Below the pieces are notes generated by a model, which saw only the letters and a list, made by a program, of their open reading frames with translations, made no database searches and had not been told where the DNA came from. Both the position numbers and the translations under genes were made by a program. From the NCBI GenBank assembly GCA_964343875.1, contig CAYFJW010000004.1:18395-82394 (forward strand): a DNA stretch of 64,000 nt, written 5' to 3'. This document shows positions 1-48,936 of this stretch, in pieces. This DNA is from Candidatus Woesearchaeota archaeon. Its GTDB lineage: Archaea > Nanobdellota > Nanobdellia > SCGC-AAA011-G17 > UBA489. The stretch's first letter is position 1. Every line of letters begins with the position of its first letter.

Positions 1-541
1 CACGCTCTTCTAAATATGGTTTGAGGGCTTTAACGAAGCTTTTGGAAAGGATGATATTACGATCCTTCTTGCCCTTTCCTGCCCTTACTGTGCCCATGTT
101 CTCATCTAGATCTAAATCATTTACACGTAGTTTAACGGCTTCTGAAACTCTTAATCCTGAGGAGTATAGAAGCTCAATTAGAAGGCGGTGTTTAGGGTTT
201 TTGGCAGCTTCTAAGAGACTTTTTACTTCATCCATTGTAAGAACTGTAGGTAGTTTCTTTTCGATCTTAGGGGCTTTTATATCACCCATAATGTTTTTCT
301 TAAGAACGTCTTTGAAGTAGAACTTAATTGATGATAAGGCTAAGTTTATTGATGCGGGTTTTAGTTTTTTAGACGTCATTAAATGTGCAATGTACCTCTT
401 TAGATCTTGTTCTTTTATCTGTCTGGTGGGCTTTTGTGCGTAGTTTAGGAATTCTAAGTTTTGTCTAATGTAATTCTTAATTGTAACATCAGAATATCCT
501 CTAATTTTTAATTCCGTTTCTAAGTCTTCTAAGATCTTACA
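1..541 (-). CDS. Tyrosine recombinase (XerA/XerC-like integrase), N-terminal SAM-like domain and start of catalytic domain; 3' part lies beyond the window; no in-frame ATG at the 5' end
   Basis: Minus-strand translation gives LEDLETELKIRGYSDVTIKNYIRQNLEFLNYAQKP...LTMDEVKSLLEAAKNPKHRLLIELLYSSGLRVSEAVKLRVNDLDLDENMGTVRAGKGKKDRNIILSK. This contains the canonical G-x-R-x-x-E first catalytic Arg box and the gKGkK-R motif of phage-integrase-family recombinases. The ORF track misses it because it runs off the window edge and lacks an ATG. Confidence 0.75.
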
Positions 542-815: not shown

Positions 816-1532
816 GTGGGGCGTGTCCCCAAACCTGAAGTTCTTGATCAATTAGTAGAAATTAGCTTAGATGAGTTTAACAATGGGCACCACATTAAGG
901 ATCTGCCAGAGTTTAATGTTGCTTTTACAAGATATCCTTTTGAGAGAAAGCCAACTACTGCGAAAGATAGATTGAGCAAGGGCGTTGGTTTTAGAACAGG
1001 TGCTAAAAAGGATGCCTGGATGGAAAAGGCTGAGGCGTTTGCTAAGAGGAATCATAGATTTAGATATTGTGCTTTTGAGAGGACAGAAGATACAGTACTT
1101 AGATTCCGTCGGAAGACATCTGCGATTTCTAGGTTAATTATTGAATCCTACCTTGGTCTTGAACATGAGTATTCTCATCCTGATAAGTTAATAGTTGTAA
1201 TGGATGGCCCTGAATTTGGTAGGGGTGATGGAATGGGGGCAAGATCAAAAGCTGTTGTTGAAGAAAACTTGAGAGAGTATGGGTTGGAGAGCGAAGTCTT
1301 CTTTCGTGTTCGTGCTGACCAAGGTCAAAAACATCCAGCGGCATACATTGCAGATAGACTTGCATATCTGATTGCTGTTATGTATCGTGATAGTCTTCCT
1401 CGTTTGGAGTGGCCATTCCCAGAAAGAAGGGTGGATCTTAGTTTGCCACTTCCAGTTACTGCGGATGAACTAAGGTATATGGCCAGATTGTTAAAAAAGG
1501 GTTCTAGAGGCGGGTCTCACAGCTTTGAATAG
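816..1532 (+). CDS. Hypothetical protein; C-terminal half weakly resembles the DUF3800 / RNase-H-like pattern (IVVMDGPEF ... AAYIADRLAYLIA)
   Basis: 238-aa ORF with GC above the window average and no antisense competitor of comparable length. Motif resemblance is from memory only. Confidence 0.45.
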   Translation: MGRVPKPEVLDQLVEISLDEFNNGHHIKDLPEFNVAFTRYPFERKPTTAKDRLSKGVGFRTGAKKDAWMEKAEAFAKRNHRFRYCAFERTEDTVLRFRRKTSAISRLIIESYLGLEHEYSHPDKLIVVMDGPEFGRGDGMGARSKAVVEENLREYGLESEVFFRVRADQGQKHPAAYIADRLAYLIAVMYRDSLPRLEWPFPERRVDLSLPLPVTADELRYMARLLKKGSRGGSHSFE

Positions 1533-1591
1533 TGGATTCGTATAATATACATTATATGAAATTTTATAAACATTCAATTTATTAAATTCCT

Positions 1592-2224
1592 ATGATCCCA
1601 AGAGATTTAAGGCTGGTCCTAGTGGGAGTAATTAGCACCCTGGTCTTTCTTACTATTGCGCTCTCTCTCATTCTTTACTCTGAAATACTTCGGGAACACC
1701 AAGGAGTTGTAGCCTTTTTATCACTTCTCATATTGATCCTTGTATTCGTAGGAGATAAGTGGTGGGATCGTGAAAGGAGAAGAAAACAAAAGATAAATGC
1801 CTTATTGGCATTGTCAAGGCAGACGGACTATCTCAAGAGGAATCTTAAGTATGTAAAAGGGGCCATCCCTAAAAGGATAATGCCTGTCCATATACTTTCT
1901 TTGTATAACATTTCTTGGGAGCACTTTCCCATCTCTGTAGATGGTAAGAGCACTAGGGATTTGTATGAGCTTGCCACATTCATAGACGATAAGATACGTA
2001 CCCTAAATGAGAGGAGAGCAGAAATACTACAAATAGTACTTACTTACGACACAGTGGAAAGGAAAGAGGCGATGGTGGAAAAGTACTATAAATCTTTTGG
2101 GGAGGCCATAACTGAGGCGCTTGAAGGATTGGTAGATGGCTTAAATGCGATCACTACCATATTTTATAGGTGGGGCATTTACCCTTTAGATGGTTCAACA
2201 AGATTAACCAAATTATTGAAATAG
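1592..2224 (+). CDS. Membrane protein (2 N-terminal TM helices plus soluble domain), hypothetical
   Basis: 210-aa ORF with hydrophobic N-terminus (LVLVGVISTLVFLTIALSLILY, FLSLLILILVFVG). Confidence 0.45.
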   Translation: MIPRDLRLVLVGVISTLVFLTIALSLILYSEILREHQGVVAFLSLLILILVFVGDKWWDRERRRKQKINALLALSRQTDYLKRNLKYVKGAIPKRIMPVHILSLYNISWEHFPISVDGKSTRDLYELATFIDDKIRTLNERRAEILQIVLTYDTVERKEAMVEKYYKSFGEAITEALEGLVDGLNAITTIFYRWGIYPLDGSTRLTKLLK

Positions 2225-2225
2225 G

Positions 2226-3014
2226 GTGAAATTTTTTGATCTTGTTCAAAAAGCTTATTATCTTATCAAAAAGGATAAAACTATGGTATTGAAAGGTGAA
2301 GTTGTTGGCAGGCGGGATATTGAAGAAATTCGGCGACTATTTCTTGTTGCGTTTACAATTAGCATATTTATGCTAATGACTATCGAAAGATTTCTCAACC
2401 TTAAAATTGCAGAGGATATACTCACCCATACACCAAATGAGCTAACTCTGCGTTTTTCAATTGGAGTAGGTATCTATGTTTTTGCGTATCTCTTCTTTGG
2501 GGCCTGGAAGGAGCATCATAAGAACCTAGCCTCTTGCCTGATTTATTCGCTGAAGATAAACATTTTTCTTATGGGGGTTCTCATTCTTCATGCTGGTACG
2601 GTCTCAGTCTCTTACTTATGGGACACCTATTTGGGGTTGATAATTAATGGATGGATTGTTTTCCTAATCAACCATCAAGTTGTGTGGAATGGATTTCCTT
2701 TTCTAACATTCTTTTTTGCATCTTTGGGAGTGATATACGAGAATGTAAAAACATTTAAGCTTCTGGAAGAGGGTTTTTTTGTGTTTCAAATTAAAAAAAT
2801 AATTAAAAGAACATTCTCAAAACCAAGGATTAAAGCTAGTATTCATTTTAGTCTGGTTCTGGGTGTGACATTGTGGGCCACTACAGTCTATAGGGCTGCA
2901 GAGGGTAAACATTGGGCGTTTTATATAGGTGCATGGTTACTAATTGCATTTATCTTGTTAATTTTCGGTGGGTCTTTTTTAGACATTTTAGACAAAGAAA
3001 AAAAGTTCACATAA
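2226..3014 (+). CDS. Polytopic integral membrane protein, hypothetical
   Basis: 262-aa ORF starting 2 nt after the previous stop, with multiple hydrophobic segments. Confidence 0.45.
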   Translation: MKFFDLVQKAYYLIKKDKTMVLKGEVVGRRDIEEIRRLFLVAFTISIFMLMTIERFLNLKIAEDILTHTPNELTLRFSIGVGIYVFAYLFFGAWKEHHKNLASCLIYSLKINIFLMGVLILHAGTVSVSYLWDTYLGLIINGWIVFLINHQVVWNGFPFLTFFFASLGVIYENVKTFKLLEEGFFVFQIKKIIKRTFSKPRIKASIHFSLVLGVTLWATTVYRAAEGKHWAFYIGAWLLIAFILLIFGGSFLDILDKEKKFT

Positions 3015-3075
3015 CATATCTTAGGCGAAGTATAATCCGCCCTGCCAGTAGAGCCCCCAGCGAAGCCGAAAGAGA

Positions 3076-3204
3076 CTATTCAGGCACTTCCTGCCTAAAA
3101 CCGCACTTCTTGCAGTATCTGATGTGGAAGGAACCATCTGAGAATTTATGTTCTCCGTCGTGGAGTTTATCACCACATTCTGGACAATTTTCTTTGAATT
3201 TCAT
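3076..3204 (-). CDS. Small C4 zinc-ribbon protein (42 aa), not in the ORF track
   Basis: Minus-strand ORF MKFKENCPECGDKLHDGEHKFSDGSFHIRYCKKCGFRQEVPE with CPxCG...CKKCG. It overlaps the antisense + ORF 2912..3208, which looks spurious. Confidence 0.5.
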   Translation of the reverse strand: MKFKENCPECGDKLHDGEHKFSDGSFHIRYCKKCGFRQEVPE

Positions 3205-3241
3205 GTGAAAATTACTTGTTAGCAATGCTTAAAAGTTTTAG

Positions 3242-4180
3242 CTATGCTGCCTGGAATTTTGGACTCAAGAATCTTGCACTTTCAAGTATCCGTGGCATGT
3301 TTACTGGGGCAACTTCTTCTGGGTTCTTACCTGAAAGTTGTGCAAGGTCATTAAGCAATCTAACATATGCAGGTGTTACTTCAAAACCGCCCACAACTGG
3401 GGAGAACCTAGTATAATGTCCTGGTTCTTTAGCAGGCCTGTAAACTGCAGGGCATAATTGCGGCTTGTCCATTGTGAGAATTGAATCTACTCCTACGGGG
3501 ATAATGCCTCCCTCTTCACGTATTGCCTGATATTGTCTTGTACGCCTCATGTTTCTGTGTTCCATTTTTTGGTCTTGAATTCCAACGCCTCTGTATGTAA
3601 TGGCTTTTGCAAAATGAGCCTTAACTCTATCTACAAGCTCTCTCTTTTGCGACAAGAATAAATCTCTGTCTTCCAAATACCTTCCCCGTGCTTGGTTTTG
3701 AGCGACAGAGGTAAGAAATTCGTAGTTTTCGGAGTCGCTTAATGCATCAAAGTGGGCAACTGCTTGCCTGAATTCTGCTGTGTCGGGTGTTTGGAATCCT
3801 TGTAATACGTCAGATGTAAGTTGTTTTCTTTTGCTCCTTAGAGCGTCTGTAATTGCTCTATAGACTCTTGTAGCAGAGCTTCCGCTTACAACCTCATCAA
3901 TACCCATGAGATGAATTCCGTGGTCTTCATCAACCACCTCATCTAGAAAATTGCCCATCCAGTCCCTCATGACTAATTGGACTTGAGCAATACCGCTTGA
4001 TGCCGGCATATAGAAAACCTTCTGTGGATCAAAATCCTCACCAACGATGTGCATTGCATCTATGAAGGGTACAGAGCCCATCATGGGAGCTATAATTGCG
4101 TCTGGTGAGCTTTCATGGAATATCTCTGCGGCTTCTGCCATCCCTCGTTTAAAGTCCACTAGCGCTTCTCTAAAATTCAT
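3242..4180 (-). CDS. Hypothetical protein with an N-terminal phosphoribosyltransferase-type (PRTase) fold motif and a C-terminal domain of unknown function
   Basis: IHLMGIDEVVSGSSATRV matches the type-I PRTase PRPP-binding signature (four hydrophobics, D-D/E, two hydrophobics, S/T-G-x-S/T). Local GC is elevated relative to the window. Confidence 0.45.
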   Translation of the reverse strand: MNFREALVDFKRGMAEAAEIFHESSPDAIIAPMMGSVPFIDAMHIVGEDFDPQKVFYMPASSGIAQVQLVMRDWMGNFLDEVVDEDHGIHLMGIDEVVSGSSATRVYRAITDALRSKRKQLTSDVLQGFQTPDTAEFRQAVAHFDALSDSENYEFLTSVAQNQARGRYLEDRDLFLSQKRELVDRVKAHFAKAITYRGVGIQDQKMEHRNMRRTRQYQAIREEGGIIPVGVDSILTMDKPQLCPAVYRPAKEPGHYTRFSPVVGGFEVTPAYVRLLNDLAQLSGKNPEEVAPVNMPRILESARFLSPKFQAA

Positions 4181-4244: not shown

Positions 4245-4898
4245 TTATTTCTTCTTTGGTTCTGGCTCGGGCTCGGCCTCCTTTGGCTGTTTGACTTCGT
4301 TATCCTTGAAATAGGACTTTCCTTTCTCTGTAATGGCTATATAGGTCTGTTTGCCCTTTCTTAGCTTGTGGATGAATCCAGCATCTACGAGGATTCCAAT
4401 GTACTCAGAAACCGTGGATCTTACCTTGTCGTAGGATTTACCAGGGTAGAGGTCAGAAGCCAGCGTTTTTAGAGCAGTCCACTCTTGGCCGGACTCTCTT
4501 TGGAAGGCACCCAACCTAAAAAATATGGCTTTTTGTGTTTCAGTCAAGTCGTCCAAGGGGGTTCGTTCTATTCTCGGAGGTAATTTTTCGTTTTCATAGT
4601 CATAGTATGGTTTTTCTTTTGAGCTCTCTCGAGTTTTTGGCTGCTTTTGAAGGGAATTTTCCCTGTCTGCTAGGTAGGACATGACTTGGCCGATCTCCTC
4701 TATCCTGGATTCCATGTTTTTGAATCTGTCACTGTATTCTTCGTCCCTTGTTTTGAAAAAAGAAAGCCAATCACGGACTACTTTGATGTCCGACTTGATC
4801 CTTGTGAAGGAATGTTTCAAGTTTTCGGAGATTTGATTGACGTGATCGAGCGCTTTGTTAACTTCCGACCTCTTTTTTCCAAAGAACAAAAACCCCAT
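4245..4898 (-). CDS. Coiled-coil plus C-terminal winged-helix (MarR/TrmB-like) DNA-binding protein; paralog of 5516..6157
   Basis: C-terminal TETQKAIFFRLGAFQRESGQEWTALKTLASDLYPGKSYDKVRSTVSEYIGILVDAGFIHKL has a wHTH pattern. The N-terminal half is heptad-like and the tail is lysine-rich. Confidence 0.55.
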   Translation of the reverse strand: MGFLFFGKKRSEVNKALDHVNQISENLKHSFTRIKSDIKVVRDWLSFFKTRDEEYSDRFKNMESRIEEIGQVMSYLADRENSLQKQPKTRESSKEKPYYDYENEKLPPRIERTPLDDLTETQKAIFFRLGAFQRESGQEWTALKTLASDLYPGKSYDKVRSTVSEYIGILVDAGFIHKLRKGKQTYIAITEKGKSYFKDNEVKQPKEAEPEPEPKKK

Positions 4899-4902
4899 GC
4901 GA

Positions 4903-5110
4903 TTTAGACGTAGACGTTATTTATAAATGTAACTCATGTGTAGGAGACGTCCCTCTACATTCGTAGACGGGTGTAGACGTGTCGTAGACGGTTCGTAGAC
5001 GCGTTAATCGACGCTTTTTATAAAGAAAATGACCATTTACAGACGGGATCGACGCATTTTTGAAGGTTTTTCGAGAAATTCGAAAAGTGAGAAAAAGGTC
5101 ATCGACGCGT
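4903..5110. repeat. Iteron array: at least 6 direct copies of (C)GTAGACG followed by 3 copies of ATCGACGC, in the intergenic region between two paralogous wHTH genes
   Basis: tagacgtagacg (4905-4916); gtagacg at about 4963, 4973, 4984 and 4994; cctctac (inverted) at 4951; atcgacgc at about 5007, 5047 and 5101. Confidence 0.65.
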
Positions 5111-5515
5111 AAAAATTTTTGAAAAAAAGTTGAAAAAAGGCTAAATTCTTTCGGTTGAGGTTTTGTGAGGGTTAGAAGGGAGCCTGAGGAGGGATGAAAA
5201 AAGTAGAAAAAAGGTGCTGAAAGGTACGCTTATTTTGGAAAAGGGAGGAATAGGAAAGAGGGTGGTCAGGAATACCCTAGAATGGGAGAAGTGAGAAAGA
5301 AAAATAGGTATTGTTGGTGGACGGGGAGGAGCCGAGAAAGGTGCAGGATCTGCCCTATTTCCCATAAGTGAGAGCTAGTCATGAGAAGAGGGCTCCAAAA
5401 GTATCTATTTTAGGCGTTTTTGTGAGAAAATGATGCGTCGACGGAGGGTTTGAAGAGTGATTAACTCGGAAGAATACTGCTTTATTTCGAAAAAGTGAGA
5501 GATGAATTGAAAGAA

Positions 5516-6157
5516 CTACTCAAAAAGCGTAGTTTGATCAGTTGGATTCTCTCTGAGACGGATCAATTTATTGAGAAGGTTTAGGTCGTGAAAGTCTTCT
5601 TTTACCAAAAGTGAGGTTTTACGGTTGAAATGCCTCTCTTTCTTTAATGGGAGGCCTTTGGCCATTAGGCGGTTTGCAACGCCTCTAACGGTCGGTTCTG
5701 TTAGATTTAGGTGATTTGCAAGAAGTGAGTAGTTGACTTCTCCTTGCTTTTCTAGGTCTAAAATAGCCATGAACACCGAGAATTCCCTATCTGTGAGGGT
5801 TTTGAACTGTTTCTCAAAGTCCCTCTCTAGGGCCTGTAGGGTCTTTTTCGGAATGTTTTGTTGTCTTTCGTTGATGGTTGTTGACTGTTGATCGTTGACT
5901 GTTGATCGTTGATGATCGTTGATGACCCCTTTATTTCCAGTGGAGGCCTCTTTAAAGGAGGCTAAAATGGTCTTTATTTCTGTTATACCTTCTTTTAAAT
6001 CGTTTATTTTTAAATTAATCTCCTTAATCTCTGATTTATTGGATTTGGAGGTGCTTTCAAGGCTTCCTAGGCCTGTTTTTAAACTTGAAATGTCGTTTTT
6101 TACATTAGAGAAGGAATTCCTTATCTTTTCCTTAAAGGAGCTATCATCTTCTGCCAT
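5516..6157 (-). CDS. Coiled-coil plus winged-helix DNA-binding protein with an internal Q/N/D-rich tract; paralog of 4245..4898
   Basis: C-terminal REFSVFMAILDLEKQGEVNYSLLANHLNLTEPTVRGVANRLMAKG is a wHTH. The internal VINDHQRSTVNDQQSTTINERQQ tract is encoded by GTTGATCGTTGAC tandem repeats at 5870-5930. Confidence 0.55.
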   Translation of the reverse strand: MAEDDSSFKEKIRNSFSNVKNDISSLKTGLGSLESTSKSNKSEIKEINLKINDLKEGITEIKTILASFKEASTGNKGVINDHQRSTVNDQQSTTINERQQNIPKKTLQALERDFEKQFKTLTDREFSVFMAILDLEKQGEVNYSLLANHLNLTEPTVRGVANRLMAKGLPLKKERHFNRKTSLLVKEDFHDLNLLNKLIRLRENPTDQTTLFE

Positions 6158-6270
6158 TTTAGAGGGGATATTGGGGGCATTAGAATTATATAAGTCTTAC
6201 TTGTTGATCACTGTTGTTCATTGTTGATGATCGTTGATCATTGTTGACTAACCCCTTTATTTCCCATGGA
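5870..6270. repeat. GTTGAT(C/G)GTTGA(C/T) tandem repeats, with a degenerate second copy of the 5870-5945 segment at 6187-6270 in the intergenic space
   Basis: tgacccctttatttccagtgga (5925-5945) recurs as taacccctttatttcccatgga (6248-6270). The second copy encodes MGNKGVSQQ-stop, a truncated duplicate of the TGNKGVINDHQ segment of the 5516..6157 protein. Confidence 0.6.
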
Positions 6271-6784
6271 AATCCTTAGAAATCTTGTAGTAGAGCGCCA
6301 GGAAAGCCTCTTTTTGGGGTTTTAGGCCTACGGCGAGGAGTTTTTTAACTAGGTCTTGCCCAACGACCTTTTCTGTGCCTGTAGGAAGCTCGTAGCGCAC
6401 GATTTGGACAAGGGTTGGGCGGGATATGAATCCCTCATTTACCTGCAAACAGAGCTTCTGACCTGTTTCAATGCTTTTCACGACTAAATTGAATAGATTT
6501 ACCCTGATATCTCCACGGATGAATATATCTTTTTTGGCTTTAGCGAAGCCATTTGATAGGAGGAGCTCCTCTAGCATCGCTTTTATGGTTTGTTTGGCTG
6601 ACTGTTTGGGATTGTTTAGTGTTGATTGTTGATGATTGTTTAGTTCGATTACACGGCCTAGATAGGCTGAAACCTTTTGTTTAGGGTGCCTCTTGCTTCT
6701 TTTACGTCGTTTTGTAAGAACTAGGTATGCATATTTCCTTATACTTCCAGAAGTGTTTTTTCTTGTCTTAGTTCGTATATACAT
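6257..6784 (-). pseudogene. IS1634-family-like (IS4 superfamily) transposase N-terminal fragment, 175 aa, truncated at the duplication junction
   Basis: N-terminus MYIRTKTRKNTSGSIRKYAYLVLTKRRKRS...KQKVSAYLGRVIEL resembles the IS1634 transposase N-terminal pattern (MFxRxKxxKNGK.Y.YLVES.R...K..Q..LxxLGR). Full-length IS1634 transposases are about 450-550 aa, and there is no DDE domain here. Family resemblance is from memory. Confidence 0.4.
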
Positions 6785-9559: not shown

Positions 9560-10207
9560 TTAGACGTTTGATAAAACTGAATCAATAAATGGTTTAGGGA
9601 ATGCCGACAATAAGGAGATTGCCTTAATTTTGGGTGTTATTGTTACCCTTTTTTCCCTGTGTTCATTTAAAAAGATGGATAGTTTTGTTTTGTCTTGAAG
9701 GTTGTTTAGTATGGTCAGTATTGAAATTGTGAATGCTGAGTCAATATCTTCTTGGGATTCACTATTAAGGGATTCTAGGATTTCTTCTTTTGTGAAATTT
9801 ACTCCTTCGGTTATAGATATCTCTTCTGAGAGGAGATTTTCTAGTGATTGGTCTGAGAAGATGAATATTTTGAAGTATTGGTCTGTTAGGACTTCATTGT
9901 TGTTTGAGAAGTCTTCTTTTAGTGTGGATAGTTCTTCCTCTGAGTATGTGCTTGGTTTAGAGTCTAGGAAGTTGATGGACACTGCTGATTTGTAGGTGTT
10001 TTCCTTTTCATAGATAAATAAGGAGTTAGAGGTTTGTAATTGGCTTAGGCTTTTGGCGTCTGAAACAACCACTGCTACGATTATTAATGAAATTATAAAG
10101 AATATTACAAATGTTATGAAAATGGCCCTTGTTACGCTTTTTATTATGAAATAAGCGATCACAAATATGATTGCTGCTATAATTGGAATCAAATAAAAAA
10201 GAGCCAT
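9560..10207 (-). CDS. Membrane-anchored protein (2 N-terminal TM helices), hypothetical
   Basis: 215-aa ORF with hydrophobic N-terminus (LIPIIAAIIFVIAYFII, FITFVIFFIISLIIVAVVV). Confidence 0.45.
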   Translation of the reverse strand: MALFYLIPIIAAIIFVIAYFIIKSVTRAIFITFVIFFIISLIIVAVVVSDAKSLSQLQTSNSLFIYEKENTYKSAVSINFLDSKPSTYSEEELSTLKEDFSNNNEVLTDQYFKIFIFSDQSLENLLSEEISITEGVNFTKEEILESLNSESQEDIDSAFTISILTILNNLQDKTKLSIFLNEHREKRVTITPKIKAISLLSAFPKPFIDSVLSNV

Positions 10208-10610
10208 GGCTGTTTAAAAAAGAAGTAAGTTATAAATCTGTTGATAGAGTCACACCTTGATTTCTTATGGAATAAAAATTAAGAGAAAAAAGGTGTGGAT
10301 TAAGAGTAGAAAACGTAAAAGTAAAGAAGAAGGTCTGTATTTACTGTTTTTTGTATTTTATTATATTTTACTTATAAGATTAATTATTATATTATATTAT
10401 ATATTATAATATTTATTTTATTATTTATATTTTCTATTTATTATTTTATTTTTTGATTGTTGATGAGATTGGTGGTGATTAGGATGTTGATTGTTTCCGG
10501 GAATTTCTATTTTTGTTTATAAATAATATCTCCATTGGAAACTATGGTGTGAGAGTTTTATTTGGTATCACAGATATACTTAAATAAAATCTGCAGTTTT
10601 AGCAGGATTA
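10207..10610. promoter_or_regulatory. Candidate chromosomal replication origin (oriC): two inverted ORB-like boxes flanking an AT-rich unwinding element, immediately upstream of cdc6/orc1
   Basis: ORB-like tccattggaaactatggtgtgag at 10531-10553 (+). Its inverted partner tccataagaaatcaaggtgtgac is the reverse complement of 10247-10272. An AT-only tract lies at about 10370-10450. The core ctCCAtTGGAAAc matches the archaeal mini-ORB consensus TCCAGTGGAAAC with one mismatch. Confidence 0.6.
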
Positions 10611-11828
10611 ATGGTAGATGTTAAGAATTTTCTGAGAGATTATGCGAAAAAAGAGAGTTTATTCAAAAATAAGAAGGTTTTACAATCTAACTACACTCCT
10701 GCTAAGGTTCCATACAGAGAAGATCAAATCAATGTTCTTGCAGGTATTCTTGCACCTTCCTTGCGTATGGAGAGACCAAGTAATATTTTTCTTTATGGTA
10801 AGACTGGAACTGGTAAAACACTTGCGATCAAGCATGTTACTGATCAAATAAGCGATGTTGCTAAAGAAAGCAAACTTAATTTGAGAGTAATATATCTCAA
10901 TTGTAAGCTAAAGAGGATTGCTGATACAGAATACAGGTTAATTGCACAAATTTCAAGGGAATTAGGTCATGAGATACCTCCTACAGGGTTGCCTACTGAT
11001 GAAGTTTACAAAATATTCGTTAAAACTGTTGAAAAGGAAAAGATGCTACTCCTTTTAGTTTTGGATGAAATTGATGAGGTTGTAAAAAATACAGGAGATA
11101 AGATTTTGTATAATTTAACAAGATTGAATTCTGAATTGGAAAATAGTGAGATATCTATTGTTGGAATTAGTAATGATTTAATGTTTATTGATCAAGTTGA
11201 CCCGAGAGTGAAGAGTAGTTTAAGTGAGGAAGAACTTGTTTTTCCACCATACAATGCTATACAATTACAAAAAATATTGAAAGAAAGGTCAGATATATCT
11301 TTTGAGAAGAGTGTTATTGGTGAGGGCGTTATTGAGAAGTGTGCAGCTTATGCTGCTAAAGAGCATGGTGATGCTAGAAGGGCATTAGAGTTATTGAGGG
11401 TTGCTGGAGAGTTAGCTGAGCGAAATAACTCTGAAAAAATTGCAGTTAAGTTTATAGATCAGGCCGAGGAAAAAATTGAAAGAGACAGAGTTGTGGATAT
11501 TGTTTCTACACAACCTAAACAATTTAAAATAACACTGTATAGTATTTTACAGTTCTCAAATTTATGTTCAAAAAATGGAAATTCCCAAGACATATACACA
11601 GGTGATATCTACGAATTGTACAAAGAAAATTGCTTAAAATGCGGCACGAAACCCCTAACACAAAGACGAATTGGTGATATTATAGCAGAATTAGATATGT
11701 TAGGCATAATCAACGCTAGGGTGATAAGCAAAGGGAGGTATGGTAGGACGCGGAGGATTACGTTGGGAGTTCCTGAAAACATCACGAAGAAGATTAACGA
11801 TATGTTAAAGGAAGGACTTGGTTTATGA
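10611..11828 (+). CDS. cdc6: Orc1/Cdc6 replication initiator
   Basis: AAA+ Walker A LYGKTGTGKT, Walker B LLLVLDEIDE, sensor and C-terminal winged helix; 405 aa; placed beside the predicted origin. Confidence 0.92.
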   Translation: MVDVKNFLRDYAKKESLFKNKKVLQSNYTPAKVPYREDQINVLAGILAPSLRMERPSNIFLYGKTGTGKTLAIKHVTDQISDVAKESKLNLRVIYLNCKLKRIADTEYRLIAQISRELGHEIPPTGLPTDEVYKIFVKTVEKEKMLLLLVLDEIDEVVKNTGDKILYNLTRLNSELENSEISIVGISNDLMFIDQVDPRVKSSLSEEELVFPPYNAIQLQKILKERSDISFEKSVIGEGVIEKCAAYAAKEHGDARRALELLRVAGELAERNNSEKIAVKFIDQAEEKIERDRVVDIVSTQPKQFKITLYSILQFSNLCSKNGNSQDIYTGDIYELYKENCLKCGTKPLTQRRIGDIIAELDMLGIINARVISKGRYGRTRRITLGVPENITKKINDMLKEGLGL

Positions 11829-13495
11829 CACCAGAGATAAAAAAGGAAGTTTTAGAATCTTTTTTAGAAAAAGGTTTTTTATTAGCTCCGGATATTTTAG
11901 AGGAAGAGGGTTTTGATTCTGATTTTTTGAACTTAGTTGATACAAGGATATTGTCTAAGGACAAGCCGGTTGTTATTGGGTTGGATATTTACAAGGGTGT
12001 TTCTAGGAAAGGAGTTACTGGTATTAATTGGATTGAGTTTGAGAAAAGTAGGGTTTTGCATGAGAAGGGTAAGACCAACAGAGTTTATTCTTCTTTTTTA
12101 GAGTTAATATTTGACGAGCCCAAGGAAGAAACAGGGTTTACAATAATAAAAAAGGAAGAACCTGAAGAAAAAGTTGAGGAAGTTCAGGTTGAAGTTGAGA
12201 AGGGCCAAACTAATTTGTTGGATGCAGGCTATCCATTGAAGGTTGTTACTAGCTATGGTGATGAATCAAAGTTGAGAGAGGTTAAGGATTTTGTTAATCA
12301 TTACAAGAGTAGATATAATTTTTTGAGGAAGATTGTTGCTGGGAGGCAGGAGATGCAGAACGTAATTTCTATCAATCGTGTTTCACCTAAAGAGAGAGGG
12401 GAGAAGGTCGCTCTTATTGGTCTTGTGTATGATAAGAGGATCACTAAGAAAGGGAATACGATGATCACTCTTGAGGACACCACTGGCACAATCAGAGTTA
12501 TTTTTGATGCGAATAAGGCTAAAGGTGTTGAGTATTTATGTAATGATGAATTAATTGGTGTTGTTGGAACTGTTAATGAGAACTTTATGTATGCCACTGA
12601 TTTAATTTTTCCTGATATTCCAGAGAAAGTTGGAACAAAGACATATAATGAAGAGGTTTGTGCCGCCTTTATTTCTGATGTTCATGTTGGTAGTACGTGG
12701 TTTATTGAAGATAAGTTCTTGGAATTAATAGACTGGTTGAATGGTCAACATAAAGATCCCGAACTTGTTGAGCTAAGCAAAAAGGTGAAGTTCTTGTTTA
12801 TTACTGGAGATATGGTTGACGGTGTTGGTATTTATCCAAACCAAGATAAGGAACTAAATATCAAAAGTATAAGGGGGCAGTATGATAGGTGTGCTGAATT
12901 CATTGGGATGATTCGTGATGACATACAAGTTGTTATGTGTCCTGGCAACCACGATGCTAGGAGAATCGCTGAACCGCAACCACCCTTAGAGTTGTATGCT
13001 GAGTCATTACAAAAAATAAAGAATTTAACATTAGTTTCAAATCCAGCGATGGTTAATGTTTTGGCCAAAGATGGCTTTGAAGGTTTTGATATTTTGATGT
13101 ATCATGGGTACAGCTATGATTACTACGCTGCGAATATAGGGCCCGTAGCTCAGGATGGAGGGTATGATCGTGGTGATTTGATCATGAAGTTTTTGTTAAA
13201 GAAAAGACATCTTGCTCCTGTTCACACTTCTACATTATTTGTTCCCAATGGGAAGGATGACTATCTCGTTATTGATAAGGTTCCAGATATTTTTGTTTCT
13301 GGCCATATTCACAAGAGTTCTGTTTCGAAGTATAAAGGCGTTACAAATATAGTTGGTTCTTGTTGGCAGTATAAAACAGACTTTCAGGAAAAAGTAGGGC
13401 ACCATCCAGAGTATTGTAAGGTTCCTGTCTTTAACTTTGGCACTGGCAAAACAAGGGTTATAGATTTCGCACCAGAGGGAGAAAATGAAAATTAA
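11825..13495 (+). CDS. polB: DNA polymerase II (PolD) small subunit DP1
   Basis: OB-fold region followed by a calcineurin-like phosphoesterase domain (DVHVGS, GDMVDG, GNHD motifs); start overlaps the cdc6 stop (ATGA). Confidence 0.9.
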   Translation: MTPEIKKEVLESFLEKGFLLAPDILEEEGFDSDFLNLVDTRILSKDKPVVIGLDIYKGVSRKGVTGINWIEFEKSRVLHEKGKTNRVYSSFLELIFDEPKEETGFTIIKKEEPEEKVEEVQVEVEKGQTNLLDAGYPLKVVTSYGDESKLREVKDFVNHYKSRYNFLRKIVAGRQEMQNVISINRVSPKERGEKVALIGLVYDKRITKKGNTMITLEDTTGTIRVIFDANKAKGVEYLCNDELIGVVGTVNENFMYATDLIFPDIPEKVGTKTYNEEVCAAFISDVHVGSTWFIEDKFLELIDWLNGQHKDPELVELSKKVKFLFITGDMVDGVGIYPNQDKELNIKSIRGQYDRCAEFIGMIRDDIQVVMCPGNHDARRIAEPQPPLELYAESLQKIKNLTLVSNPAMVNVLAKDGFEGFDILMYHGYSYDYYAANIGPVAQDGGYDRGDLIMKFLLKKRHLAPVHTSTLFVPNGKDDYLVIDKVPDIFVSGHIHKSSVSKYKGVTNIVGSCWQYKTDFQEKVGHHPEYCKVPVFNFGTGKTRVIDFAPEGENEN

Positions 13496-16400
13496 TGAAG
13501 AAACCAAGAATTACTTTGAAGAAATAGATTCAGAAGTAAATGTAGCGCTTAATTTAGCTAACAAATGTAGGTTGGCAGGCCTTGATCCAGAGGATCATGT
13601 TGAGATTATGTTGGCAAAGAACATGGCAGAAAGAGTAGTTGGACTAATTAGTGTTGTTGCACCTGAGTTGAAAGAGTCCGGGATGGTTGATAGAATTAAA
13701 GAACTTGAGGAGAAGTATGGGATGCAGGATTGGCGGGTTGCATTGACTGTTGCTTTGGAGACGGCCCAGGAAAAGTTTGTGAAGTTTGAAGACAAGAAGA
13801 AAGCTATGGAAATAGGTTTAAGGGTTGGTATTGCGTATATTACTAACGGAGTTGTTTCTTCTCCTTTGGAAGGTTTTACTAAATTAGAGATTAAACAGAG
13901 AAGGGATGGGAAGGAGTATATTGCTTTGTTTTATTCTGGGCCAATGAGGAGTGCGGGCGGAACTGCAAGTAGCGTTTCTTTGTTAATTGGTGATTACATA
14001 AGACAAAACATGGGGTATGAACCTTATGATCCTGAAGAAGTTGAAGTAAAAAGACATTGTACTGAGTTAGCGGACTATCATGAAAGGATTACAAACTTAC
14101 AGTACTTTCCTTCTGTTGAGGAAATAAGTTTTTTAGTCAACCATATTCCTATTCAGATTGATGGTGATGCAAGTGAGAAGTTGGAAGTTAGTAATTATAA
14201 GGGTCTTGACAGAGTTGAAGCTGATAGGATAAGAAACGGTGTTTGTTTGGTTACTGGTGAGGGTATTGCTCAGAAAGCGCCAAAAGTTTGGAAACAACTT
14301 GCTAATTGGGGGAATGACTTTGGTTTGGATAATTGGAACTTCTTGAAAGACTTTGTGGACTTACAAAAAAAGATTAAAGCTAAACAAGTTGAAAAGAAAG
14401 ATGGGGAGGAGGAAGAGAAATTAAAACCAGATTATACCTTCATTAAAGATATTGTTGCTGGCAGGCCAGTGTTTAATCATCCTTTAGCTAAAGGAGGGTT
14501 TAGGCTTAGGTATGGTAGAACGAGGGTTTCAGGCTTCTCTGCCGATTCATTGCATCCTGCTACAATGGCTGTTTTGAAAGATTATATTGCTATTGGGACA
14601 CAGTTGAAAGTTGAACGGCCGGGCAAGAGTACAATTATTTCTGTTTGTGATGCAATTGAAGGACCAATTGTTAAATTAGAAGATGGTTCCGTTTGTAAGT
14701 TGGATTCTGTTGAGAAAGCTAATGCTGTTAAGGATAAGATCGATGAAATAATTTATTTAGGGGATATATTAATTTGTTATGGGGACTTTTTTAATAGAGG
14801 GCATGGTTTAGTTCCTGTTGGTTATTGTGAAGAGTGGTGGGCCCAGGAGCTACTTGAGCTTGCAGGGAAAAAAGGTAGTGGGTATTTTCCTGAGTTATTG
14901 GAGAAAGTTAAGAAAGATTATTTTTGTGATGTTTCACTGGAGGAAGCCTTTAGGTTGTCTGAAACTTTTGGTGTTGCATTACATCCTAAGTATACATATA
15001 ATTTTTGTGCGCTTACGATGGATGAATTAAAAGCTTTGAACGATTGGGTTTCTAAAGGGAGTTTTTTGGAGTCAAAGGTTGTTTTGCCGTATACCGGTGA
15101 TGATATTGCTAAAAGATCTTTGGAGTTGTTAGGTGTGCCTCACAAAGTTGTAAGTAATGAATATGTTGTTGTGTTTGGCGTTGATTCTAAGTTGTTGAAG
15201 TTTTATTTTGATAAAATTGATTTTGGCAAAGGAGACGTTCTAGAGGCCCTAAACAAGAAGTTCCCTATTGCGAATAAACTTGGTACAACTATTGGTGCAA
15301 GGATGGGCAGGCCTGAGAAAGCAAAGATGCGAAAGCTTACGGGGAGCCCACATGTTTTGTTTCCTGTTGGAGATGAAGGGGGGCGGTTGAGATCCTTTCA
15401 GTGTTCCGTTGATGTTGGGAAAGTTAATAATCAGTTTCCAATTTATTCTTGTGAATGTGGAAATGAGTCTGTTTATTCTACATGTGAGGTTTGCGGTAAG
15501 AAAACAAAGAAGAAGTACCTTTGTAAGAAATGTGGCATGACCGAAGTTAAGTGCCATCCTGAGATGATTACCGAGTATAAAACATGGGATCTGGATATTG
15601 GTAAATACTATAATAGTGCGATTAAACTTTCAAAGATTAATAGGAGCATGTTACCCGAACTTGTTAAGGGTGTTAGAGGAACAAGTAACAAGAATCATAT
15701 TCCTGAACATTTAGTTAAGGGGTTGTTAAGGGCCAAGCACAAAATCTATGTTAATAAAGATGGGACGACCCGTTATGATATGACCGAGATGCCGATTACA
15801 CACTTTAAGGCTAAAGAAATTGGAACAAGTGTCGGGCAGTTAAAGAAACTTGGTTATTTGAAGGATGCTTTTGGTAAGGACTTAGTTGATGATGATCAAG
15901 TTTTAGAGTTGAAGATACAGGACGTGATTATGCCTGCTTCTCAGGATGCAATGGATGAGGGCTCAGACCTTGTTTTTGAGAGGGTTGCACAATTCATTGA
16001 TGATTTGCTTGTTAATGTGTATGGTGAGAAAGAATTCTATAATGTTAAGGATAAGCAGGATTTAGTTGGACAGTTAGTTATTGCATTGGCCCCCCATATT
16101 AGTGCGGGTGCTGTTGGAAGAATAATTGGTTTTAGCAATACACAGGGAATCCTCGCACACCCTTATTTCCACAGCATGGTTAGGAGGGATTGCGATGGTG
16201 ATGAACTTTGTTGCATAATGTTAATGGATGCAATGTTAAACTTTTCAAGACAGTATTTGCCTGCACATAGGGGAAGCACACAGGATGCACCATTAGTTCT
16301 TACAAGTATTTTAACTCCTGCTGAAGTTGATGACATGGTTTTTGATATGGATGTTTCTTGGAAGTATCCTTTAGACCTGTATAGGGCTGCGATGAAGTAT

Positions 16401-16946
16401 GGAAAGCCGTGGGATATTAAGGTTGATCAACTTGGCGGAAGGTTGGGAACGGAGAAACAATATTATGATATGGGCTATACTCATGCAACTTCTGATCTAA
16501 ATGCTGCTGTTTCCTGTAGTGCGTATAAGATTTTGCCTACAATGGACGAGAAGGTTCAGGGGCAGATGGAAATTGCGAAGCAAGTTAGAGCTGTTGTTAC
16601 AGATGATGTTGCAAGGTTGGTTATTGAAAGACATTTTATTAGGGATATTAAGGGTAATCTGAGGAAGTTCAGTATGCAGCAGTTTAGATGCATTAAATGT
16701 AATGAGAAGTATCGTAGGCCTCCTATTGCGGGACACTGTACACACGGAAAGTGCTTTGGTAAGATTGTGTTTACGATTTCCCAGGGGAGTATTGTGAAGT
16801 ATTTGGAACCTAGTTTGAAATTAGCCGAACAGTTTAAGATTTCTTCTTATTTACAAGAGACATTGGATATAACTAAAATGCGAGTTGAAAGCATATTTGG
16901 TAAGACTCCGGAGAAGCAAGAGGGTCTTGTTAAATTTTTTAACTAA
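13485..16946 (+). CDS. polC: DNA polymerase II (PolD) large catalytic subunit DP2, no intein
   Basis: 1153 aa, overlaps the DP1 stop. Internal Cys clusters (CECGNESVYSTCEVCGKK...CKKCG) and the C-terminal Zn module CIKCNEKYRRPPIAGHCTHGKC are typical of DP2. Confidence 0.9.
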   Translation: MKINEETKNYFEEIDSEVNVALNLANKCRLAGLDPEDHVEIMLAKNMAERVVGLISVVAPELKESGMVDRIKELEEKYGMQDWRVALTVALETAQEKFVKFEDKKKAMEIGLRVGIAYITNGVVSSPLEGFTKLEIKQRRDGKEYIALFYSGPMRSAGGTASSVSLLIGDYIRQNMGYEPYDPEEVEVKRHCTELADYHERITNLQYFPSVEEISFLVNHIPIQIDGDASEKLEVSNYKGLDRVEADRIRNGVCLVTGEGIAQKAPKVWKQLANWGNDFGLDNWNFLKDFVDLQKKIKAKQVEKKDGEEEEKLKPDYTFIKDIVAGRPVFNHPLAKGGFRLRYGRTRVSGFSADSLHPATMAVLKDYIAIGTQLKVERPGKSTIISVCDAIEGPIVKLEDGSVCKLDSVEKANAVKDKIDEIIYLGDILICYGDFFNRGHGLVPVGYCEEWWAQELLELAGKKGSGYFPELLEKVKKDYFCDVSLEEAFRLSETFGVALHPKYTYNFCALTMDELKALNDWVSKGSFLESKVVLPYTGDDIAKRSLELLGVPHKVVSNEYVVVFGVDSKLLKFYFDKIDFGKGDVLEALNKKFPIANKLGTTIGARMGRPEKAKMRKLTGSPHVLFPVGDEGGRLRSFQCSVDVGKVNNQFPIYSCECGNESVYSTCEVCGKKTKKKYLCKKCGMTEVKCHPEMITEYKTWDLDIGKYYNSAIKLSKINRSMLPELVKGVRGTSNKNHIPEHLVKGLLRAKHKIYVNKDGTTRYDMTEMPITHFKAKEIGTSVGQLKKLGYLKDAFGKDLVDDDQVLELKIQDVIMPASQDAMDEGSDLVFERVAQFIDDLLVNVYGEKEFYNVKDKQDLVGQLVIALAPHISAGAVGRIIGFSNTQGILAHPYFHSMVRRDCDGDELCCIMLMDAMLNFSRQYLPAHRGSTQDAPLVLTSILTPAEVDDMVFDMDVSWKYPLDLYRAAMKYGKPWDIKVDQLGGRLGTEKQYYDMGYTHATSDLNAAVSCSAYKILPTMDEKVQGQMEIAKQVRAVVTDDVARLVIERHFIRDIKGNLRKFSMQQFRCIKCNEKYRRPPIAGHCTHGKCFGKIVFTISQGSIVKYLEPSLKLAEQFKISSYLQETLDITKMRVESIFGKTPEKQEGLVKFFN

Positions 16947-46910: not shown

Positions 46911-46992
46911 GAAGAACTAGTCGAATTATTGGCCCAACTTTAGGAAATGCCTTTGCCAGAATATCTTTATTGACTTAGTTAAACAAGATAAG

Positions 46993-47064
46993 TAGGCGAG
47001 CGGAGAATTGAACTCCGGTCTTAGTCTCCGCAGAACCACGTACTATCCACTATACTACTCGCCT
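46993..47064 (-). tRNA. tRNA-Arg (anticodon GCG)
   Basis: Minus-strand sequence AGGCGAG-TA-GTAT-AGTGGATA-GTAC-G-TGGTT-CTGCGGA-GACTA-AGAC-CGGAG-TTCAATT-CTCCG-CTCGCCT-A folds into a cloverleaf. It has a 7-bp all-Watson-Crick acceptor stem, a D-loop with GG, U33, anticodon GCG, purine 37, a 5-bp T stem with TTCAATT loop, and a 4-nt variable loop. CCA is not encoded. Confidence 0.75.
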
Positions 47065-48151
47065 TTTTCATTTTTCTAATTTTAGCTGTATTCTTGGACC
47101 CAATCTCTTTGATCCATTTTTTTAACATTGTTGGACCATTCAACGTAATGGTGTACTTATAAACTGTGGGGATGTATCCAAGCTTTCTGAACATGCTGTG
47201 TAGCTGATCTATTAATCTTTTAGATTTTATTGTTATTGAAATTACTGGGTACCTCCTGTCCCTAAGGTAGATGCATCCATCTGTATCAAAGAGACCTCTG
47301 ATGAAGTGGAAGTAAATCTTTCTATTCCTTGTATCTAGTACTTTCTTAGGAATTTTTAGCTTTCCAACTTTTTTTCCTGTGGGAAGTTCTAGTTCCTTGT
47401 TCTTGAATTCACAAAGTGCCTTTGAATATATCTCAAATCCACATACACTATTGAGATGCATTAATCTTAAGTCTAAATTGTATAATTTTTTGTATAATCT
47501 TAGCAGGTGGCTTGTGAAATATTCTTTTTCCGTTTTGTTACATTTAACAGAAAAATAATTTTTTGTAGATAAGCATCCATCTCCCATGTGCACTCCTATT
47601 TCCTCGGCTAGTTCTTTTGACATAACCTCTGGAAGTGTCAGCTTTTTACATTTATCATGTTTACTAAAGCTTATTTTCTCTGAATTGAAGAAAACTTTCT
47701 CATTTGTGAAATAATTTTTGTTAGACTTTTCTAACTCTTTGGACTCTAACTCCCTCTTTTTTATTTTTCCTTGGACGGTCATTTTTATTAGGGCCTTTCC
47801 ATGCCTTTTCCATATCGTGTTTTTAACACATTTTGCTTTTTGCCTCATCAAATTTGAGTAGGCTTCTTCTCCAAGCTTTTTCCTTTGACATTGAGCAGAT
47901 CTTTTTCCACCAATCTTTCCTCCTTCTATGGCTCCCCAATTATTATCTTTTTTATCTAATATCTCACTTGGCTTTATTTCTGAAAGAATCAAGAAATCTG
48001 GGATATATCGATTTTCGTATCTATATCCCTTGAGTGTTTTGAAGTTAATTTTTAGCTTTTCTGCTAATTCTTTTAATGTTTTTGCGTTGTTTTTCTTCTT
48101 TAAAATACGGAAGAGCTTTTCTTTAGACTGTAGAGATATTAGAACTCTCAT
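47021..48151 (-). CDS. Free-standing double-motif LAGLIDADG homing-endonuclease-like protein
   Basis: Two LAGLIDADG motifs about 100 aa apart (IGVHMGDGCLS and IRGLFDTDGCIYL); basic N-terminal region; 376 aa. The last 14 codons overlap the 5' half of the tRNA-Arg on the same strand. Confidence 0.75.
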   Translation of the reverse strand: MRVLISLQSKEKLFRILKKKNNAKTLKELAEKLKINFKTLKGYRYENRYIPDFLILSEIKPSEILDKKDNNWGAIEGGKIGGKRSAQCQRKKLGEEAYSNLMRQKAKCVKNTIWKRHGKALIKMTVQGKIKKRELESKELEKSNKNYFTNEKVFFNSEKISFSKHDKCKKLTLPEVMSKELAEEIGVHMGDGCLSTKNYFSVKCNKTEKEYFTSHLLRLYKKLYNLDLRLMHLNSVCGFEIYSKALCEFKNKELELPTGKKVGKLKIPKKVLDTRNRKIYFHFIRGLFDTDGCIYLRDRRYPVISITIKSKRLIDQLHSMFRKLGYIPTVYKYTITLNGPTMLKKWIKEIGSKNTAKIRKMKKASSIVDSTWFCGD

Positions 48152-48246
48152 TTTGGTTCTCGAATGAATGTTTATTTGTTTAAATATTTTATCCAGACTA
48201 AACCGTAAGTATTTTCATTTTATACTGATTTAAACTTTGCATAAAA

Positions 48247-48936
48247 CTAATTCTCTCTTCGTGCAAGGTCAGTGTTTGGTAAGTTCTTCTCTTTTTGAAT
48301 AATAAAAATGTGGCCAGGATGAGACTCTCCATTTATTGTTGTAAAATCTGGATTTTCATAGTGCAAAATGGAAGAATTGTGACTTTCTATAAGGTCTTCC
48401 ATTTCTTTTTTGCTAAAATTGTGTGTTCTAAACCTTTCCGTTCCATCTTTGTTTTTAACAATTACTGTGCCATACTCCTTGGTTGTTTTTTTGTGTTCCA
48501 TATATCTAGCAGAATTATCCGTTTGTCCAAATTCTGATATGTGTAAAATTCCATTTGCTTTAAGAACCCTAAAAATTTCATCCATAACCCTCCTTCTTTC
48601 GTCAGGAGCCATACAAGCTAAAACAGCCTGCGAAATAATAACATCAAAAAAACTATCTTCAAAATTTAAGTTCTTTGCATTTTGAACCGAAAAATTAACA
48701 TCCTTGAGTTCTTTATTTTTTTGAGCCTCTTTAATTGCACTCTTATTTATGTCAATGCCATAAGCTTTACAATTTTTTTCTTTTAAAATATTGCATAATC
48801 TCCCATATCCACAACCCAAATCTAAAACAACCTTATCTGCTTCAATGTGATCAAATAGTTTCTTTGAAAAACTAGAAGTGGCTGGCACGTTCTTACCTTC
48901 AATTTTTTCCCATTTTTCGAAACTCACCTCATTCAC
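48247..48936 (-). CDS. Class I SAM-dependent methyltransferase
   Basis: Motif I VLDLGCGYGRL, acidic motif II YGIDIN, motif IV FDVIISQAVL. Confidence 0.7.
   Translation of the reverse strand: MNEVSFEKWEKIEGKNVPATSSFSKKLFDHIEADKVVLDLGCGYGRLCNILKEKNCKAYGIDINKSAIKEAQKNKELKDVNFSVQNAKNLNFEDSFFDVIISQAVLACMAPDERRRVMDEIFRVLKANGILHISEFGQTDNSARYMEHKKTTKEYGTVIVKNKDGTERFRTHNFSKKEMEDLIESHNSSILHYENPDFTTINGESHPGHIFIIQKEKNLPNTDLARREN

Follow-up and report, generated by a model that had tools for sequence, protein, structure and literature searches.

A conserved ORB-DUE-ORB module of the oriC1 type beside the cdc6-polD genes of a Woesearchaeota archaeon, a candidate replication origin

The window, the 64,000-nt stretch of a Candidatus Woesearchaeota contig analysed here (GenBank assembly GCA_964343875.1, contig CAYFJW010000004.1, positions 18,395 to 82,394), contains the gene string cdc6-dp1-dp2, encoding an Orc1/Cdc6 initiator and both subunits of DNA polymerase D (PolD), and upstream of it a 403-nt spacer between two divergent start codons (10208-10610), which is coextensive with a candidate replication origin (oriC). 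In this spacer two inverted origin recognition boxes (ORBs) are located on either side of an AT-rich tract, a putative duplex unwinding element (DUE). Judged by its sequence, this ORB-DUE-ORB module is real, is conserved throughout the phylum, belongs to a known archaeal origin type and is found where it is expected, beside cdc6. The region is best interpreted as an Orc1-1-dependent replicator of the oriC1 type, which would also be the divergent promoter/operator of the cdc6-polD genes; we assign this interpretation a probability of roughly 0.6, its use in vivo being uncertain. No described replication origin for the Woesearchaeota was found in the literature searched.

Boxes, AT tract and adjacent initiator

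In agreement with the ORB consensus, each of the two boxes has a TCCAnn(G/A)GAAA core that is followed, after 4 nt, by a G-rich tail: box A, located 58-80 nt upstream of the cdc6 ATG, reads TCCATTGGAAAC-TAT-GGTGTG, and box B reads TCCATAAGAAAT-CAA-GGTGTG. Both have kept the TTCC and GAA motifs, which are the core motifs of ORBs (PMC1904270). They are located on opposite strands with 259 nt between them and bracket the AT tract, which is the inverted-ORB arrangement of oriC1-type origins. A first-pass annotation of this DNA had proposed inverted ORB-like boxes at these sites, with the exact limits of box A (10531-10553) and a partner (10247-10272) that was correctly placed and 3 nt too wide, the box being 10249-10271; it credited the pair with 19 of 23 shared positions, where the count gives 17 of 23.

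An inverted pair of 23-mers with at least 17 matches arises in 86% of the shuffles of this AT-rich 403-nt sequence, so that the identity of the boxes to each other is in itself not significant and was dropped as evidence. The 11-nt core alone, with one mismatch permitted, showed no enrichment (21 matches in the window versus 22 expected). The joint pattern of core and G-string (TCCATNNGAAANNANGGTGTGA, at most three mismatches) gave six matches in the window versus 0.26 expected. An ORB weight matrix with consensus ttTTCCAtAaGAAATaAaGGgGTgnGgGT, trained on relatives only and with the window excluded, scored box A at 34.6 bits (30-mer 10528-10557) and box B at 30.1 bits (30-mer 10245-10274), versus a best score per shuffled window of 11.7 bits on average and 24.2 bits at most (50 shuffles); the ORB-type core claimed earlier for both boxes is thereby borne out.

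The AT tract was compared with a composite of the window and the contigs L051 and L055 (L numbers designate the loci compared in this study), which covers 82.5 kb (window coordinates -9184 to 73334) of the 88.8-kb contig. The core of the tract, the 80-mer 10354-10433, contains only two G/C and is the most AT-rich of the composite; the runners-up have six G/C in the composite and 13 G/C in the window. The sub-tract 10370-10450, which the first-pass annotation had described as nearly pure A/T, is 96.3% A+T. A comparable AT tract is carried between the boxes by relatives as well. The TATA-like element TTAAATAAAA may be the promoter of cdc6-polD, whose transcript would then have a short leader or none.

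Gene assignments by Pfam and open reading frame coordinates agree with the earlier claim of an origin-cdc6-polD order with overlapping stops and starts: the oriC-cdc6-dp1-dp2 order of the Thermococcales type is present, with overlaps of 4 nt (cdc6/DP1) and 11 nt (DP1/DP2). The window Cdc6 scored 349 bits against Orc1-1 of Sulfolobus solfataricus (2qby_A) and 311 bits against ORC1 of Aeropyrum pernix (2v1u), versus 163 bits for Orc1-3 and ~80 bits for the Orc1-2 class. The Gly-Leu pair of the initiator-specific motif (ISM) and the winged-helix arginines in TQRR (helix-turn-helix) and GRYG (wing) are kept; mutation of the Orc1-1 residues aligned with them lowers mORB binding (PMC3089459). By these matches the adjacent initiator, the cognate one for such boxes, is of the Orc1-1 class with its DNA-contact residues intact.

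By analogy with solved Orc1-ORB complexes, each inverted ORB would bind one monomer of the initiator encoded next door, with the winged helix on TCCAnnGGAAA and the AAA+ ISM on the GGTGTG G-string. The TCCA ends facing the AT tract would presumably put the winged-helix domains beside the DUE, judging by the Orc1-ORB structures. ATP-bound Orc1 would load MCM at the 107-nt, 94% A+T tract, where the duplex would open. Orc1 binding to the same boxes would probably also autoregulate cdc6-polD, since each box is located just upstream of a TATA-like element of the divergent pair (cdc6-polD and the gene for a putative membrane protein). What the sequences show is the anatomy of the module, the class of the initiator with its contact residues and the conservation across the phylum; Orc1 binding, MCM loading and firing are inferred.

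Conservation of the module and comparison with described origins

The cdc6 loci of relatives, 45 from species-representative genomes and 67 from metagenomes, were compared; the metagenome set was not used in matrix training, and 55 independent loci were scored for layout. In the 45 genome loci, the window-derived box core has a density of 2.86 per kb within 600 nt upstream of cdc6, versus 0.087 per kb elsewhere. In 53 of the 55 metagenome loci the order (-) box, AT tract, (+) box is found upstream of cdc6, and the (+) box precedes the cdc6 start by 50-280 nt; most of the 36 genome loci that include over 500 nt of upstream sequence have this layout too. Profile matches in the metagenome set number 109 in 54 kb near cdc6 versus 33 in 662 kb elsewhere. 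When six species with 81-100% identical Cdc6 were aligned, the spacer was found to be diverged and only the two boxes and the TATA-like block invariant: TCCA..GGAAA...GGTGT in box A, CACACC..TTTC.T.TGGA in box B, and T(T/G)AAATA in the TATA-like block, followed by AAA in five of the six. The insert 10455-10495 is missing from L006, a relative with 96% identity, and from the other aligned species, and is probably outside the conserved module. A Cdc6 identical to that of the window is encoded on an 88.8-kb ENA contig, and the window Cdc6 is 96% identical to that of a Woesearchaeota metagenome-assembled genome.

A chance resemblance in an AT-rich divergent promoter region, which the frequency of 17/23 inverted identity among shuffles and the unenriched 11-nt core would both allow, is opposed by the box scores far above the null, by the boxes forming invariant islands within a diverged spacer, and by the layout shared among 53 of 55 independent loci with a ~40-fold local enrichment. 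On these sequence comparisons a chance origin of the box pattern is excluded, the probability left to it being minute.

The module resembles the oriC of Pyrococcus abyssi and Pyrococcus furiosus, which is likewise located directly upstream of a cdc6-dp1-dp2 string and has two long ORBs, inverted around AT-rich DNA, with TTCC and GAA core motifs (PMC1904270, PMC4010727). At oriC1 of Sulfolobus, inverted ORBs also flank an AT-rich DUE; there ORB2-DUE-ORB3 is the essential core, and each ORB binds one Orc1-1 monomer with defined polarity (PMC12141716). Sulfolobus oriC1 differs in that it possesses a third ORB as well as ucm, a motif to which UBP binds (ucm was not searched for in the window); its G-string is GGGGT, compared with GGTGTG in the window, where the DUE is far more AT-rich. 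The ORB sequence of A. pernix has a TCCAnnGGAAA-type core. The ORB of A. pernix oriC1 (complex in PDB 2V1U), 22 bp in length (PMC1904270), is like those of the window a short ORB with a core, a short spacer and a G-rich element; A. pernix is, in contrast, a hyperthermophilic crenarchaeon with several ORBs per origin and no polD adjacency.

Misassembly at the AT tract was ruled out: independent assemblies from ENA and Logan, as well as many species, span the junction alike. Many contigs of relatives begin at most ~200 nt upstream of cdc6 (L007, L008, L011, L013, L021, L022, L030, L049), and Logan contigs of the window's own population break at 5863-5892, in the repeat beside a distal ORB-like box (see below). 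The AT tract and the distal-box repeats appear to be assembly breakpoints, the AT tract accounting for the frequent breaks just upstream of cdc6. The phylum-wide ORB consensus, together with the fixed layout, could be used to anchor and orient genome assemblies of DPANN archaea.

Strand composition and use of the module in vivo

The GC skew of the window is very strong and positive. At 4-fold degenerate sites to the right of 10.4 kb, the + strand GC skew is +0.31 in 47 genes on the + strand and +0.29 in 17 genes on the - strand; the skew of the right flank is a pure strand effect. For the left flank the values are +0.39 in 11 genes on the - strand and +0.10 in 11 genes on the + strand. On both flanks the + strand has more T than A, and the skew is positive in 71 of 86 genes. 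Archaeal skews are generally weak, with a variable sign of the third-position component (PMC12999951), and against these the asymmetry of the window (4-fold GC skew of ~+0.3, independent of gene orientation) is unusually strong. A step that the raw GC skew shows at 10.4 kb arises because gene orientation changes there; it was dropped as an origin signal, as third-position and 4-fold skews keep their sign.

Several results weigh against the module being an origin in regular use. Across the 82.5 kb, no sign change of neutral-site GC or TA skew was found at 10.4 kb (4-fold and third positions), and a per-locus regression separating gene orientation, whose own term was about zero, returned +0.26±0.04 for r(left) and +0.42±0.04 for r(right). 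A bidirectional origin used in every cycle would be expected to have flanks of opposite sign, whereas the same sign is seen on both; at the P. abyssi oriC skew and origin coincide, and in the window they do not. The first-pass annotation had named in advance the lack of a skew inflection near 10.4 kb on the full replicon as refuting an origin, and over the 82.5 kb covered this lack is what we found. Among relatives with 62-89% Cdc6 identity, most have one sign on both flanks; same-sign flanks are seen in the close relatives L061, L065, L071, L076, L077 and L080, and most members of the window's clade are (+,+) relative to cdc6; L016 (90% Cdc6 identity) and L009 (81%) share the synteny of the window and have the opposite sign on both flanks. 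The Pyrococcus origin moreover differs in having many 13-bp mini-ORBs and a second ORB cluster in dp1, whereas the matrix scan gave only the two boxes above 12 bits in the intergenic region and none in dp1, with no mini-ORB array of the Thermococcales type. Archaeal origins are also known that are dormant (PMC4595724) or dispensable (PMC5663688).

A skew switch is not universal among archaeal origins (PMC12999951, PMC4640148). That a recent insertion or inversion of the left flank masks a switch was ruled out by the conserved synteny winged helix-turn-helix (wHTH) gene - 175 aa - 150 aa - LonB - PRC - origin - cdc6, which is found in L016, L009, L012/L058, L044, L017 and L015 and extends in L058 to the recombinase and MoxR genes. 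L012, considered as a canonical (-,+) switch, was rejected: once longer flanks (L058, L069) are included, its pattern is explained by gene orientation, with a 4-fold skew of ~0. The sole skew reversal in the composite is a 1.4-kb block ~13 kb to the left of the origin, comprising three genes (L051 5098-6521; window coordinates -4087 to -2664) with a third-position skew of -0.5 to -0.84, which suggests a recent local inversion. A slightly negative third-position + strand skew, rare in the window, was also observed for the LAGLIDADG-domain gene 47021-48151(-), which adjoins a tRNA-Arg(GCG) (region 46992-48936), and for its minus-strand neighbour 48247-48936.

In many species of the clade with 51-56% Cdc6 identity, the third-position strand skew changes sign at the homologous module, from + to -, as illustrated by an Undinarchaeota contig (z = +9.1 on the left and -8.9 on the right). 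Such a polarity is opposite to the bacterial rule and is that of the experimentally mapped ori3 of Haloferax volcanii, a local maximum of the third-codon and non-coding cumulative GC skew (PMC12999951); the window's clade, in contrast, switches in neither polarity. The module thus marks a replication landmark in the sister clade and not in the clade of the window. The oriC label of the first-pass annotation stands as far as structure and comparison are concerned (boxes, DUE, initiator and conservation); as the place where leading and lagging strand change over in this genome, the module finds no support. Strand composition does not switch at the module in this lineage, and the use of the module in vivo may be partial, conditional or asymmetric.

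One explanation, to which we give about one chance in four, is that the origin is dormant or vestigial and has been retained as an operator, through which Orc1 controls the promoters of the divergent pair, cdc6-polD and the membrane gene; the locus would then be traversed in one direction by forks that started elsewhere. This explanation would fit a neutral-site skew that keeps one sign to the left and right over 82.5 kb, the reversed sign of both flanks in L016 and L009, as if the locus were inside a replichore of species-varying direction, and the TATA-like element abutting each box. There are precedents, since complete ORB and cdc6 modules are normally unused at the dormant, cdc6-linked origin of Haloferax mediterranei and unneeded in Thermococcus kodakarensis with its oriC/Cdc6 deleted (PMC4595724, PMC5663688); such a state would explain a conserved module without a skew switch. 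These cases, however, rest on replication profiling and genetics, whereas that of the window is one of base composition alone, and H. mediterranei's dormant origin is not conserved in related species (PMC12999951), unlike the phylum-wide module described here. Furthermore, nearly all relatives have retained the extreme AT tract, for which an operator pure and simple would have no need; in the sister clade a skew switch falls on the homologous module; and the 82.5 kb contain no other cdc6 gene or inverted ORB-DUE module. The first-pass annotation had regarded additional cdc6 genes with better ORB clusters as evidence against its proposal; within the 82.5 kb none were found.

The strong, orientation-independent skew, uninterrupted over 82.5 kb except for the 1.4-kb inverted block, and the (+,+) state of most relatives in the window's clade would also be obtained from an active but effectively unidirectional origin, at which only one fork is established or escapes and one physical strand is leading all round the circle; one-strand replication modes have been proposed to give a continuous skew with no shifts (PMC12999951, PMC7111523). 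We consider this improbable. L016 and L009 share the box orientation and the T-rich DUE strand of the window and yet have the opposite skew sign, from which it follows that the direction would not be set by the module itself. Unidirectional firing is not known for any archaeal Orc1/ORB origin, and the 82.5 kb are only about a tenth of such a genome.

A broader proposal, which we hold as tentative and would expect to be true in perhaps one case out of three, is that chromosome replication is asymmetric: either a single fork leaves the module, or replication begins somewhere not linked to cdc6, the module being mainly an Orc1 operator. In this proposal the module would act jointly with the distal ORB-like pair. 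The conserved Orc1-1/ORB-DUE-ORB module would then not be where the replication strands switch in this clade. The combination of a textbook origin module with a strong, uninterrupted neutral-site skew raises the question whether ultra-small archaea fire their cdc6-linked origin bidirectionally.

Distal ORB-like boxes and neighbouring genes

Table 1. Location of the module, its initiator and related features in the window.
Feature	Position	Strand	Remarks
Left ORB box (box B), 5'-TCCATAAGAAATCAAGGTGTGAC-3' on minus strand	10249-10271	-	TCCA end toward AT tract, G-string outward
Right ORB box (box A), 5'-TCCATTGGAAACTATGGTGTGAG-3'	10531-10553	+	TCCA end toward AT tract
AT-rich tract, putative DUE	10340-10446 (107 nt)	.	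94.4% A+T; 64% T on + strand
Insert (TTGTTGAT-like repeats) separating AT tract from box A	10455-10495	+	lineage-specific, ~40 nt
TATA-like element TTAAATAAAA	10580-10589	+	22-31 nt 5' of cdc6 ATG; putative cdc6-polD promoter
TATA-like element ATTTATAA (minus-strand reading)	10230-10237	-	23-30 nt 5' of start of gene 9560-10207(-); putative promoter
orc1/cdc6, Orc1-1 class, 405 aa, presumed trans-acting initiator	10611-11828	+	Pfam Cdc6_C, Cdc6_lid, AAA; TIGR02928 415 bits
PolD small subunit DP1	11825-13495	+	Pfam
PolD large subunit DP2	13485-16946	+	Pfam
Divergent 215-aa gene	9560-10207	-	no family match; membrane protein suggested by composition
Distal ORB-like box 1, core TCCACTGGAAATAAAGGGGTCA (5923-5944)	30-mer 5918-5947	-	13.7 bits; inside gene 5516-6157(-)
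Distal ORB-like box 2, core TCCATGGGAAATAAAGGGGTTA (6249-6270)	30-mer 6244-6273	-	24.4 bits

The search for further ORB copies, suggested in the first-pass annotation, was fruitful in so far as two ORB-like boxes were found 4.3-4.7 kb upstream of cdc6 (Table 1), and gave no second inverted module in the 82.5 kb. The distal boxes are in direct orientation and without an AT tract between them, and for this reason do not resemble a second origin. Box 2 precedes the start of gene 5516-6157(-) by ~90-115 nt and overlaps the stop codon of gene 6257-6784(-); box 1 is followed by (A/G)TCAAC repeats, and its orthologue is kept in L016, L009, L017, L044 and L058. Many relatives, from both clades, have minus-strand equivalents of the form TCCAynGGAAAyAAAGGGGTC at a distance of 3.8-5.7 kb upstream of cdc6 (L016, L009, L017, L044, L058, L061, L062, L065, L033-L037, L103, L107, L111 and others), either within a coiled-coil and winged-helix gene or upstream of it, and nearly all ORB-profile matches outside the origin are such equivalents. 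The additional ORB-like boxes of the window are associated with a winged-helix gene, whereas those of Pyrococcus are in dp1. A weak ORB-like match (11.6 bits) was also observed within cdc6 (10745-10774(-)), at the same position (+134) in L006, L011, L058 and L060; it may reflect coding constraint or may be a counterpart of the intragenic ORB cluster of Pyrococcus dp1.

Gene 5516-6157(-) encodes a coiled-coil and winged-helix protein of a family restricted to the Woesearchaeota (44 homologues), for which searches of Pfam, NCBIfam and PHROGs gave only sub-threshold helix-turn-helix and coiled-coil matches. Most family members translate the intragenic box as STGNKGV, whereas L058/P0015 uses a different frame and has VPLEMKGS; the boxes of the distant clade are outside coding sequence, 45-130 nt upstream of a protein with the same coiled-coil and wHTH architecture. 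The frame change, the overlap of box 2 with a stop codon and these non-coding positions indicate that the distal boxes are constrained at the DNA level, and rule them out as a by-product of the conserved peptide STGNxGV. In that clade of 51-56% Cdc6 identity (L031-L040, L103, L107, L111), the gene order flanking the origin is altered: PolD DP2 is located on the other side of the origin and on the opposite strand, followed by a Cas4-like nuclease gene (4-Cys C-terminus), the ORB-like boxes and the coiled-coil/wHTH gene.

Repeats resembling TTGTTGAT, which read ATCAAC on the minus strand, form clusters at + strand coordinates 5868-5923, 6201-6248, 6619-6636 and 10450-10491; these adjoin both distal boxes, with one within gene 6257-6784 and one in the insert of the origin spacer. 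The INNHQQSST linker of the wHTH family, which is frame-tolerant, is encoded by these repeats.

The divergent gene 9560-10207(-) is genuine, being kept in L006, L016, L010 and L009, and beyond it a PRC-barrel gene and LonB are found on the upstream side. Rfam detected no known RNA in the intergenic region or in 4899-5515, the single tRNA of the window being located elsewhere. The latter region, 617 nt of non-coding and G-rich DNA directly upstream of the winged-helix gene 4245-4898(-), contains iteron-like repeats: four copies of GTAGACG at 10-11-nt spacing (4963-5001) with a further one at 4910, and three of ATCGACGC (5007, 5048 and 5101). Genes 816-4180 gave no family matches and have a higher GC content of 0.35-0.44, compared with ~0.37 for the rest of the window; nor did they match anything in the loci of relatives, which extend at most 6 kb upstream of cdc6 (to ~4611 of the window). 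Beside these genes, ~10 kb from cdc6, is a gene for a tyrosine recombinase (Phage_integrase; 1-379(-), extending to -325 in L051), whose position is kept in L058 (14236-15105; SAM-like N-terminal domains in the L058 relative), which makes a chromosomal Xer-like enzyme more likely than a prophage integrase.

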